The position numbers were made by a program, and so were the translations under genes. Below are positions 528 through 2,999 of a stretch of DNA of 4,316 nucleotides, piece by piece. The DNA lies in the IMG/VR virus record IMGVR_UViG_2671181094_000004. One strand, given 5' to 3'. Within the stretch, counting starts at the first letter, position 1. Each line of letters starts with the position of its first letter. The notes beneath the pieces were generated by a model. It did not search any database. It saw nothing but the letters and a program-made list of their open reading frames with translations, and was not told where the DNA came from. Origin of the DNA: a virus (taxonomy: Duplodnaviria; Heunggongvirae; Uroviricota; Caudoviricetes).

Positions 528-2999
528 TTAAGAATCAGCCTGACTCGGGATCAGTTTTTGCCAGATAACTGAAACGTATTTTGCCTGGTAACGGGCGTCA
601 TCAAGTGCATTATGGCGCTCACCTTCGAATGGAATAGCCGTTCTGGCATCGAAGTCTATGGCTTTCCCCAGCTCAACGATTGTGCGTACATCGCGATCGT
701 TGTAGTAACGCCACGGGCAGGGGATCCCCTGCCGTTCGTATGAACGGCGCAAAATCGTGTTGTCGAAGTTGGCTCCATTTCCCCAAACCTGAACAAAAAA
801 TTCACCGGAGTTTTCGTCGATAAATTCCCGCAATTGTAACAGTGCATCATCTAACGGGATTTCATCGGTCATAATGGCAGATTGCGCTTCGCGTGATTGC
901 TTAAGCCACCATTTAATGGTGTTCCGATCAATGACTCCGCCAGCAGTTTCCAGATCGATAGTCTTACTAAATTCCGGTCCCATATCTCCGGTTTGCGGAT
1001 CGAAAAATATTGCACCTATTGAGATGATCGGGGCATCAGGATTTTTTCCCATGGTTTCAAGGTCGATCATTAGATGGTCACACGTCCTGCTGGTGGATGT
1101 GATTTCGTGATGACCGTTCACCTTAATTGAGTGATCTGCCGTCTCGCCAGTTTCATTATCGCTATTGTGATGCTGATTGCCGCTAGTGTTCTCCTTGTGT
1201 GGATGTTCAGCGCCTTCCATTTCCTCCGGATCATCTTCCTGAACTTCAACCTGATATTCTTCATCGAATGTTTCTTGATATGTTGCGTCGCCCATCACCG
1301 CGCCACAATCAGGGCAGTTGCCGCCGCCGGTCTGACCGCAGGCGGTGCAGACTTTTTCCACTTCCTGTTGCGCCACTGGTTCAGGCTGTTTCGTTTCTGG
1401 CTCGTTTTGTAACGCATTTGTGCTGTTTTGTTCCGCTTTTTGGTAGTTCCGTTCCGATTCATGCTGGTTCTGGTTCACAGAATCGCGGGTCTGGATCCCC
1501 TTAACCCATTTCGGATCATTCGGGTCACTAATCCCTTCAACAAATTCACCACGTGATGCAGCAAGCAACTTATCGGCGTCAGGCTGGCTGATATTGGCTG
1601 CCTGCATAATTTTGTTTACTTCGTCAGCGGTAACTTTTATCGGCTCTGGTTGTTCTGAATCTTCAGCGGTATCTACATTTTGCGGTAAGCCCGTGTATGT
1701 GCCATTTTTTCGGGCAAAATATTCTTCTTTTGTGATTTCAGTGGCGCCAGCAGCCAGTGCCTTATCCAGACCAGAAAGTTTGTTTGCGCGACCGTATTTT
1801 TCTCCGTCCTTATCTGCGAAGAGGAAATAGAACGGCCCCTCACGCTCTACAGATGGTTCAGCTTCCGGCGCGGTTTCATTTTTTGGGATATCAGATACCT
1901 CAGTTTCCACTGCATCAGTTTGTGTTTCTGATGACTGGAGAACATCAACAGTGCCCAGGTCTGTTTCTTCATTCTCAAACACGCCCTTTGTCGTCAGGTA
2001 TTCGCAGATATATTTGTTCAGTGCTATGGGATCTTTGTGAATGTCGATCGGACGCTCACGGACAAGGCCAAAAATAGTCTGGCGGTCGTAGCGAAGGGCA
2101 TCAGGCTGTTTGCGCATTGATGCCGAGATACGCTTCCAGTCTTCGCGGTCGTTGTCGATAACTTCTTTTTTTGCCCAGCGATGGATGCTGCCGTCAATGT
2201 TTCCGGCATCCACATCACCAGGCCAGAGAGCGTAGGCCAGTTCGTCATCCAGTGTTTTCCATGTCTGCTTGTATTCGCGATGAATGGCAGCAATGACCGG
2301 GCTGATTTTTCCTGTTGAATTTTCAGTGTACTGTTGATTGGCTCTGGCGCGGGCGAGATCAACAACAGACGTGTATTTTCCGGTTTCCTTGCGTTCACCT
2401 TCGCGACGTTTTTTCCAGATGCGCATCTCTGCCTGAATTTCGGGCCATTTAGCACCAGGAATACATTTATGCTTAACCCACCCAATGGCGTGCAACTTAA
2501 GCTCCGGATACATGGCGTTAACTTCTGGCATTTTCATCAACGCTTCAACGATATGTCCGTCGAATGTTGCCATGTCTTCCTGCAACAATTCCTGTGCGCT
2601 AATAACCATATCAACGGTGATGTTTTCACATGTGTCGAACTTAACCATGACAGCGTTCTGTACTTCAGGGGCCAGCTTGTCAAAAGTGACGTTCATCGGA
2701 TCGGATTCAGTCTCAACCGGGACAAAAGAAGCAGACTCCTCATCCCAGCGGTTTTCCTGCATATATTCAGCATCCCATGAATCGAGGGCAGGGCGGGGTA
2801 TGCCAGGTTTATCCTCGCAGACAATAAATTTATAAGCGCAGTCCTGAGCAGCCGGATAATGTTCCAGGAACTGCCAGTGAAATTTTGCTCGAGCACGGCG
2901 TTCGTCGCCAGCTTCAATGGCTGTGGCTACAGCCACAGCGCCTTCTTCCCTTGTTGCCAGTTCGTCAGGAATAGCGGCGCAAATAAAGACTTTACTCAT
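528..2999 (-). CDS. Large multidomain prophage protein (823 aa): N-terminal domain of unknown function, central CxxC-x7-CxxC zinc ribbon within acidic low-complexity linkers, C-terminal DnaQ-like DEDDh 3'-5' exonuclease domain
   Basis: This is an uninterrupted 824-codon ORF with GAGG (3013-3010) 10 nt upstream of the ATG at 2999. The C-terminal residues ~641-815 (nt 555-1079) carry Exo I [9 protein letters not shown] (D646, E648), Exo II [11 protein letters not shown] (D746) and Exo III [14 protein letters not shown] (H796, D800/D801), with DnaQ-like spacing. The zinc ribbon [16 protein letters not shown] is at residues 551-565 (nt 1305-1349). Linkers rich in E, D, Q, P and T span residues ~350-390, 440-550 and 570-635. 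Gene order places it in the early-left exonuclease slot. Confidence 0.85.
   Translation of the reverse strand: [823 protein letters not shown]

Follow-up and report, generated by a model that had tools for sequence, protein, structure and literature searches.

The window analysed here is a 4,316-nucleotide stretch of an IMG/VR virus record (IMGVR_UViG_2671181094_000004) assigned to Caudoviricetes. Its minus strand contains a complete coding sequence with an ATG start (528..2999), which according to the list of open reading frames (ORFs) encodes 823 amino acids followed by a stop codon and is the intact form of the Escherichia coli K-12 pseudogene ydfE. The gene product is spanned end to end by the PHROG family phrog_2082 (residues 1-822 of 823). 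From sequence comparisons, we conclude with high confidence in the domain assignments that this protein is a RecE-family scaffold (residues 1-625) with an exchanged nuclease module. The ORF, the DnaQ-type motifs and a CxxC-x7-CxxC motif all lie at the positions given in an earlier note made from the sequence alone (the original prediction).

The C-terminal module (residues 642-813; 561..1076, minus strand) is a predicted DEDDh 3'-5' exonuclease domain similar to DexA and Rv2179c. It matches PF16473 over profile positions 2-177 of 177 with an E-value of 4.1e-67 and 225.7 bits (gathering cut-off, 27), which bears out the DnaQ-like exonuclease proposed in the original prediction. The motif MIDLETMG is found at residues 644-651 (nucleotides 1047-1070), WGNGANFD at residues 739-746 (nucleotides 762-785) and the Exo III motif HNALDDA at residues 796-802 (nucleotides 594-614). 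The catalytic pentad (D646, E648, D746, H796 and D801) is invariant in 14 of 15 relatives with 53-75% identity. D646, E648 and D746 align with D7, E9 and D119 of T4 DexA, and the counterparts of H796 and D801 are H186 and D191 as listed by Kang et al. (2025; PMC12153337). Judging from these residues and from the substitution ratios given below, the enzyme is very probably active. No match to the PD-(D/E)XK nuclease domain PF12684/DUF3799 was detected in the window protein, whereas this domain is present in the RecE proteins of Rac, Gifsy-2 and HK225, and the comparison of the RecE nuclease profile with the DEDDh profile gave an hhalign probability of 0.3%. The original prediction was right that the fold differs from the PD-(D/E)XK fold of lambda Exo and RecE, and right also about the opposite polarity, as the polarity expected of such a domain.

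DNA is more likely than RNA to be the substrate, because T4 DexA, a 3'-5' DNase (8kel, 8ken), is by far the closest solved relative by sequence (E 4e-8 when a single sequence was used and 8e-16 for the family profile). An exoribonuclease that trims or degrades RNA 3' ends, for example those of the dicF-dicB operon or of host transcripts, is a rival explanation that we consider very unlikely. It would accord with the exoribonuclease activity of Rv2179c, the namesake of the Pfam family, with the name '3'-5' exoribonuclease domain-containing protein' given by PGAP to some copies, with a weak, below-cut-off match to RNase_T (PF00929; E 3e-4) and with the operon shared with the small RNA DicF, which is processed from the transcript of this operon in K-12. 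However, the DNase T4 DexA is the only solved relative identified by sequence; no Rv2179c chain was matched by the family profile at E ≤0.1, and the sole other match was 7t2s, an unnamed '3'-5' exonuclease' (E 0.02). The scaffold is, moreover, common to a DNA exonuclease, and close stand-alone homologues are encoded between the single-stranded DNA-binding protein (SSB) and Abc2 in DNA recombination modules. The DEDDh domain shares 56-59% identity with the stand-alone nucleases encoded by epsilon34 (56%) and PhiR47_1, and the nearly identical mEpX2 protein was also aligned with it; in epsilon34 and mEpX2 the gene order is Rad52-like annealase, SSB, nuclease and Abc2. A search for literature on Rv2179c together with prophages found nothing.

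The remaining 625 residues resemble RecE. In a BLASTP comparison with K-12 RecE (E 6e-61), residues 262-625 align with RecE residues 278-591, and the alignment ends at the start of the RecE nuclease domain (residues ∼564-866; domain limits from PMC11611040). Similarity is highest in the middle segment (residues 472-625; 1125..1586, minus strand), which shows ∼85% identity to K-12 RecE, and the likeness to recE at the DNA level (blastn) is confined to nucleotides 1133-1575 of the window (77%). This segment contains a conserved motif (residues 474-506; nucleotides 1482-1580) that recurs in Gifsy RecE and in family members with other tails, a zinc ribbon predicted from the CxxC-x7-CxxC motif (residues 551-565, with cysteine pairs at 551-554 and 562-565; 1305..1349, minus strand) and the second of two acidic linkers. 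All four cysteines are kept in Rac RecE (CNACGQTGGDNCPDCG), and none of them occurs in the part of Gifsy-2 RecE that could be aligned; the model confidence of the ribbon is low (predicted local distance difference test (pLDDT) score, ∼52-57). The NCBIfam RecE equivalog NF007259 covers only residues 246-625 (model positions 271-602) with 279.1 bits, below its cut-off of 1269, so that the whole-protein definition of RecE does not apply.

Further upstream in the protein lies a helical core (residues 136-343; 1971..2594, minus strand), homologues of which carry PF27432 in precomputed annotations. Core identity to the Gifsy and Rac RecE proteins ranges from 27 to 40%: the core is 27% identical to residues 177-379 of Gifsy-2 RecE, residues 136-336 show 27% identity to RecE of Gifsy-1, Gifsy-2 and HK225, and residues 262-336 pair with residues 278-351 of Rac RecE. 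Positions T246, L250, D251, E253, A255, A257, A276 and S292 are nearly invariant. The N-terminal head (residues 1-135; 2595..2999, minus strand) is an alpha/beta domain of the YdfE type, whose homologues carry PF27430, likewise in precomputed annotations. When the profile of residues 1-135 was compared with that of PF06630-type RecE heads, a remote match was obtained over residues 1-93 (hhalign probability 86.8%, E 4e-6), and a Pfam scan of the 823-residue protein gave no match to PF06630 (N-terminal Exonuc_VIII). Therefore, the statement in the original prediction that residues 1-350 match nothing fails: they match PHROG families, PF27430 and PF27432 (on homologues) and the RecE proteins of Gifsy-1, Gifsy-2 and HK225. 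A separate model of residues 1-350 (pLDDT 81) consists of the alpha/beta head and two helical blocks, and no informative structural neighbours of it were found.

In the full-length AlphaFold2 model, the folded parts are residues 1-343, a small insert (residues 385-437; 1689..1847, minus strand; pLDDT 76-85) and the C-terminal domain, which is modelled less well because the alignment there is shallow. pLDDT values fall below 50 at residues 344-384 and 572-658, which coincide with stretches rich in Asp and Glu and free of basic residues: 12 acidic residues occur within residues 361-400, and 14 acidic residues and no Lys or Arg within residues 561-600. The first of these stretches, acidic linker 1 (residues 344-384; 1848..1970, minus strand), has pLDDT values of 23-47. 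The insert, a beta-hairpin with helices lying between the two acidic stretches, is specific to the YdfE-type cassette and is missing from both Rac RecE and the protein of phage 813R8 described below. The D/E counts and the low pLDDT values agree with the modular protein with acidic linkers envisaged in the original prediction; the linkers and the zinc ribbon are not special to this protein. As for its novelty, which was to fall if the protein proved to be a RecE-family variant with known domain assignments, the observed architecture of a RecE-family protein with an exchanged nuclease comes close to that case; yet no function is known for the N-terminal region of RecE, as stated in a 2023 review (PMC11611040).

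The modules of this family have been exchanged among phages. An exhaustive HMMER search with residues 1-350 against 1.84 billion proteins yielded 168 clusters at 50% identity, the long representatives of which were typed by BLAST with domain probes, some being checked with PHROGs and Pfam. Two head types (the YdfE type and the PF06630 type) and three main tails (DEDDh, the RecE PD-(D/E)XK nuclease and a ∼340-residue tail of phrog_7838) were found, and all six head-tail combinations occur. The core was detected by BLAST in nearly all long representatives, whatever their head or tail. One pair with different heads is formed by the window gene and that of phage 813R8, whose protein has a DEDDh half with 97% DNA identity to the window and a RecE-type (PF06630) head. 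The two sequences are 97% identical over nucleotides 484-1639 of the window and 93% identical over nucleotides 2995-3913, with no DNA similarity between nucleotides 1639 and 2995; this alignment indicates that the N-terminal cassette has been cleanly replaced.

The ∼340-residue tail, labelled 'exonuclease' in PHROGs, occurs in ∼20 typed long representatives with both head types, including those of Stenotrophomonas phage vB_SmeS_BUCT708 (3974-6106), P0204, P0207, P0221, P0255, P0330 and others. It gave no match in Pfam, NCBIfam and PDB searches, and the idea that it is a diverged RecE or DEDDh nuclease was rejected (hhalign probability <1% for both). In BUCT708, the gene with this tail is followed by a Sipho_Gp157 gene. 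The N-terminal 369 residues of the BUCT708 scaffold protein have 87-93% identical copies (P0121-P0133), the named ones of which come from Klebsiella pneumoniae assemblies; whether this phage is correctly assigned to Stenotrophomonas, or where the record comes from, may merit checking. Yet another tail, corresponding to the C-terminal part of phrog_26058, is present in P0200. In P0301 (752 residues, PF06630-type head and DEDDh tail), Lys and Ala are present at the positions of E648 and D746, and for this reason some scaffold-DEDDh proteins may be catalytically dead.

Such a mosaic could be selectively neutral, that is, the fusion could have arisen by illegitimate or homologous exchange between prophages and persist through the abundance of Qin-like prophages with no function of its own. 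The sharp mosaic joints and the disrupted copies (by IS2 in K-12, by a frameshift in PPompW and as many partial matches in genomes) speak for this explanation. The substitution pattern does not: comparison with relatives 94-98% identical to the window gene gave ratios of nonsynonymous to synonymous substitution rates (dN/dS) of ∼0.16-0.22 over the whole ORF (six relatives were compared, and this range refers to the four most diverged), and values of 0.04-0.28 in folded modules. The head has values of 0.04-0.05 in three of four informative comparisons and 0.23 in the fourth, the insert 0-0.04 and the DEDDh part 0.08-0.28, and acidic linker 1, which offers few sites, ∼1.3. None of the compared copies of the gene contains an internal stop codon. 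These ratios indicate that the folded modules are under purifying selection. In addition, the catalytic residues are invariant in nearly all of the more distant relatives, the isolated phages HannyBb and Tritos carry intact copies, and the DEDDh tail is found on two different heads and has therefore been retained repeatedly. A neutral mosaic thus appears highly improbable.

The surroundings of the gene are those of a lambdoid early-left operon. On the same strand, ydfD (3093..3284; DUF1482 lysis protein, PF07358; annotated as ydfD in K-12 and E. coli genomes) adjoins the exonuclease gene upstream in the same operon. It is preceded by dicB (3281..3469, minus strand), which encodes a cell-division inhibitor (PF05358, E 1e-39; NCBIfam NF049927 on residues 36-97 of a 97-residue ORF) and has the same position in K-12 Qin, and upstream of dicB lies the full-length DicF small RNA (3644..3695, minus strand; Rfam RF00039, 72.5 bits versus a gathering score of 48). 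The listed frames 3281-3574 (97 residues) and 3093-3338 (81 residues) over-extend the real dicB (62 residues) and ydfD (63 residues). Downstream of the exonuclease gene is a truncated excisionase gene (297..455, minus strand; 52 of ∼83 residues, PF06806 positions 1-47 of 70), which is cut by an IS3-family transposase fragment (54-269, plus strand) that replaces int. At the other end, an IS1 transposase fragment (4034-4255, minus strand) has taken the place of the ydfABC/dicA side of the operon. At the DNA level, dicF-dicB-ydfD shows 98.3% identity to the corresponding region of K-12. The window is what remains of a Qin-like lambdoid prophage, and the 823-codon ORF is still intact between the IS3-family and IS1 fragments.

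In addition, nucleotides 3485-3649 of the window, which reach from the 5' portion of the dicB ORF to DicF, show 80% DNA identity to nucleotides 8750-8916 of the Rac record, a segment flanked by kilR and the small RNA KilS. This identity suggests that Qin-like and Rac prophages share a dicB-DicF/kilR-KilS regulatory segment.

Closely similar arrangements were found at related loci. The order dicF-dicB-ydfD-exo-xis-int was always seen in HannyBb, Tritos, 813R8 and PPompW, and we surveyed 80 IMG/VR loci with a DEDDh-tailed gene, out of at least 598 relatives in that database. Both dicB and ydfD are present in 78 of the 80 loci and lie immediately upstream in 77. The distance from the end of ydfD to the exonuclease start is 96-99 nucleotides in 77 of the 78 loci having ydfD, and a full xis of 83 residues begins 76 nucleotides after the exonuclease stop codon in 61 of the 80. 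The gene therefore occupies an early-left position beside xis and int like that of recE in Rac and Gifsy, and the original prediction was correct in placing it in the genomic slot of RecE. A promoter of its own was considered and rejected: no sigma-70-like site was found on the minus strand between nucleotides 250 and 4100, and the total number of sites was lower than in shuffled sequence. Because there is no promoter-like site on the strand of the gene, we infer that it is transcribed together with the repressor-controlled dicB operon; the protein would then be made at induction or infection and not in a quiescent lysogen.

Of 5,426 complete E. coli genomes, 3,537 (∼65%) carry at least 80% of the gene, at up to 10 places per genome, and many partial matches occur as well. 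The E. coli copies are annotated as 'exonuclease' or '3'-5' exonuclease'. The gene of the isolated phage HannyBb is 99.4% identical to that of the window and intact, and the Tritos copy is also intact. In the Qin prophage of K-12, the ydfE frame encodes residues 1-256 of the window protein with 100% identity and is then interrupted by IS2; because IS2 cuts ydfE after codon 256, the DEDDh domain has never been visible in K-12. In a literature search on ydfE and Qin, ydfE appeared in no title or abstract found. Inactivated copies are represented by K-12 ydfE (8079-8999), disrupted by IS2, and by PPompW_EH1846 of enterohaemorrhagic E. coli O26 (4501-6968), disrupted by a frameshift. The host, at least, can therefore do without the gene.

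None of the recombination partners that were probed accompanies the gene. In the 80 IMG/VR loci, no homologue of RecT (three types), Rad52-like annealases, SSB or Abc2 is encoded within 8 kb. The comparison of gene neighbourhoods proposed in the original prediction, which asked for an annealase or defence partner, thus yielded a fixed gene order and no homologue of the annealases probed (RecT and Rad52-like). The complete HannyBb genome also lacks homologues of RecT, Rad52-like annealases, SSB and Abc2, and its early-left ORFs show no annealase signature. In contrast, the RecE-nuclease-tailed proteins of Rac, Gifsy-2 and HK225 are followed by recT. A Rec module, in the sense of a nuclease gene that directly adjoins genes for an annealase, an SSB or an anti-RecBCD protein, is present in none of the 80 loci. 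HannyBb has seven Chi sites versus ∼1.7 expected, five of which are on one strand and mostly in the right half. According to Zheng, Casjens, Smith and colleagues (2025; PMC12315714), 22% of lambdoid phages have no Rec module and are nevertheless Chi-rich, and HannyBb fits this class. In the window, the Chi sequence GCTGGTGG occurs at nucleotides 1089-1096 (plus strand), in the DEDDh-coding part of the gene.

The same study described DnaQ-type nucleases in lambdoid early-left operons, counting the stand-alone ones inside modules such as those of epsilon34 and mEpX2 as Rec-module nucleases, and also reported sporadic DnaQ-type genes near int, outside Rec modules, as well as some 'RecE-2' proteins without a nuclease domain (PMC12315714). 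A RecE-scaffold::DnaQ fusion was not found described as such in this paper, the supplementary tables of which were not covered. Neither this specific fusion nor the shuffling of heads and tails in all combinations on the RecE scaffold is described in the literature that we searched; the general phenomena were published in 2025.

Another role has been reported for related enzymes. Kang et al. solved the DexA structure and proposed bacterial DexA homologues, which are most frequent in Escherichia (38%), as 'HREX' defence nucleases (PMC12153337). EcD, an E. coli DexA homologue, digests T4 DNA and not unmodified double-stranded DNA, and cells expressing it from a plasmid are protected against T4 (PMC12153337). 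The main rival explanation is, accordingly, that the window protein is an HREX-type exclusion nuclease, which would selectively degrade the hydroxymethylcytosine (hmC)-containing DNA of T-even phages and be kept in prophages as host protection. The homology of the window domain to DexA (profile E 8e-16), with all catalytic residues in place, is in line with this idea, as are the properties and the taxonomic distribution of the DexA homologues and the maintenance of the gene in about two-thirds of complete E. coli genomes and even in an IS-eroded remnant, with an overall dN/dS of ∼0.2. DexA W152 aligns with Y766, which preserves an aromatic residue; however, the Trp required for hmC recognition, which the stand-alone relatives have, is Tyr here. 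DexA D90, the tetramer-forming residue, aligns with D718, next to the conserved A719; EcD has Ala in place of D90, and a one-residue shift of the alignment would change the outcome. DexA D169 lies beyond the alignable part of the available DexA sequence, and its equivalent is ambiguous, D782 and D784 being candidates.

Several other findings argue against host protection. EcD is a different, stand-alone protein, which begins with MIDTET and ends with TIPETY according to its primers (PMC12153337). The 17-mer forward primer of EcD was found in 99 genome stretches, none of them from E. coli among the 80 listed, and the loci fetched contained neither the reverse primer nor an EcD-like protein end; the EcD gene was probably synthesised with altered codons. 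The window gene lies in a repressor-controlled operon with a cell-division inhibitor and a lysis protein and has no sigma-70-like promoter on its strand (250-4100), so that it would be silent in lysogens. PADLOC gives no match for the 823-residue protein, the K-12 and PPompW copies are pseudogenes, and the 625-residue RecE scaffold would be left unexplained. Taken together, exclusion of T-even phages seems an unlikely role.

We tentatively favour, at somewhat less than even confidence, a role of the protein as a scaffold-tethered 3'-5' exonuclease that would be expressed lytically and process phage DNA ends with no phage annealase. Our confidence in the biological role of the gene as a whole is a little lower, and the statement in the original prediction that the possible roles cannot be distinguished from the sequence alone still holds. 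In the favoured scheme, the DEDDh domain would remove nucleotides from DNA 3' ends, and the RecE-type scaffold would carry this activity to the place where the nuclease of RecE goes, probably double-stranded DNA ends. The nuclease domain alone replaces RecE genetically; an end-related role of the scaffold is suggested by full-length RecE, which is better than that domain at linear-linear recombination (PMC11611040). A link to recombination is also seen in the stand-alone copies of the DEDDh domain inside the Rec modules of epsilon34 and mEpX2. As a result, phage DNA ends would be resected or trimmed in the 3'-5' direction. The processed ends might then be recombined or joined by host functions or by spontaneous annealing of their 5' tails, and not by a dedicated exonuclease-annealase pair. 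Blunting of cos ends for RecBCD loading was also considered and rejected, since a 3'-5' exonuclease would be expected to lengthen a 5' overhang.

Several points weigh against this proposal. DnaQ-type genes that are int-proximal and lie outside a Rec module were not counted as recombination genes, and 3'-5' exonucleases usually inhibit homologous recombination (PMC12315714). A homologous E. coli enzyme has been reported as an anti-phage nuclease, which is a different role (PMC12153337). The proposed targeting of DNA ends by the scaffold derives from one phenotype of full-length RecE, and the literature searched yielded no experiment on the window protein itself. For Redbeta, Erf and Sak4 no sequence search was made, and their absence rests on the finding that the operon has no unassigned large ORF. 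Finally, the window copy has probably lost its native promoter and may be silent.

A broader and rather unlikely version of the end-processing proposal is that the N-terminal region of RecE, which comprises ∼600 residues, serves as a portable platform that targets swapped catalytic modules. This platform would carry a 5'-3' PD-(D/E)XK nuclease working with RecT, a 3'-5' DEDDh nuclease working with no phage annealase, or at least one further module, the ∼340-residue tail; the DEDDh form would provide either end processing of reversed polarity that is independent of an annealase or an end-targeted exclusion nuclease. If the favoured reading is right, the scaffold has been kept while its nuclease was swapped for one of opposite polarity, and therefore its role would be independent of 5'-3' resection or RecT, which would make the function of the RecE N-terminal region more tractable. 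A very common E. coli prophage gene would gain a biochemical identity, with ydfE as its remnant. It would also link two claims on DnaQ/DexA-like nucleases, that they are members of recombination modules and that they act in anti-T4 'HREX' defence, the annealase-less fusion being a test case. Even if the gene is dispensable, it clearly illustrates how domains are shuffled among lambdoid prophages. These considerations concern a gene that is very common, is already annotated as 'exonuclease' and was foreshadowed by two papers in 2025 (PMC12315714, PMC12153337).

Among known systems, the window protein resembles RecE of Rac, Gifsy and HK225. The window gene occupies the same early-left slot before xis and int, and its residues 1-625 are homologous to the non-catalytic region of RecE in the core, motif, ribbon and linker, and remotely in the head. 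The two differ in that RecE has a PD-(D/E)XK tail of 5'-3' polarity whereas the window protein has a DEDDh tail expected to act in the 3'-5' direction, and recT comes next to recE in Rac, Gifsy-2 and HK225 whereas no recT follows the window gene. T4 DexA and EcD have the DEDDh fold and the same five catalytic residues as the window domain; however, DexA (227 residues) and EcD stand alone, whereas the window domain terminates an 823-residue scaffold protein, lacks the extra loops of DexA and has Tyr at the position of DexA W152. The stand-alone nucleases of epsilon34 (gp34), mEpX2 (gp32) and PhiR47_1 belong to the same DEDDh subfamily and are encoded in lambdoid early-left operons, the PhiR47_1 one being int-proximal. 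They consist of 182-190 residues with no scaffold, and those of epsilon34 and mEpX2 are flanked by genes for a Rad52-like annealase, SSB and Abc2, whereas the window gene has no such partners. A precedent for the favoured scheme comes from in vivo cloning in E. coli, where the 3'-5' exonuclease XthA resects linear DNA ends and drives their joining by annealing, independently of RecA or a phage annealase (PMC6379578). It is a host enzyme with no scaffold, and its likeness to the window protein is a functional analogy only. The fold of XthA is unrelated to that of the DEDDh domain. The closest counterpart of all is K-12 ydfE, which is the same gene as the window ORF truncated by IS2, the window copy being the complete one.

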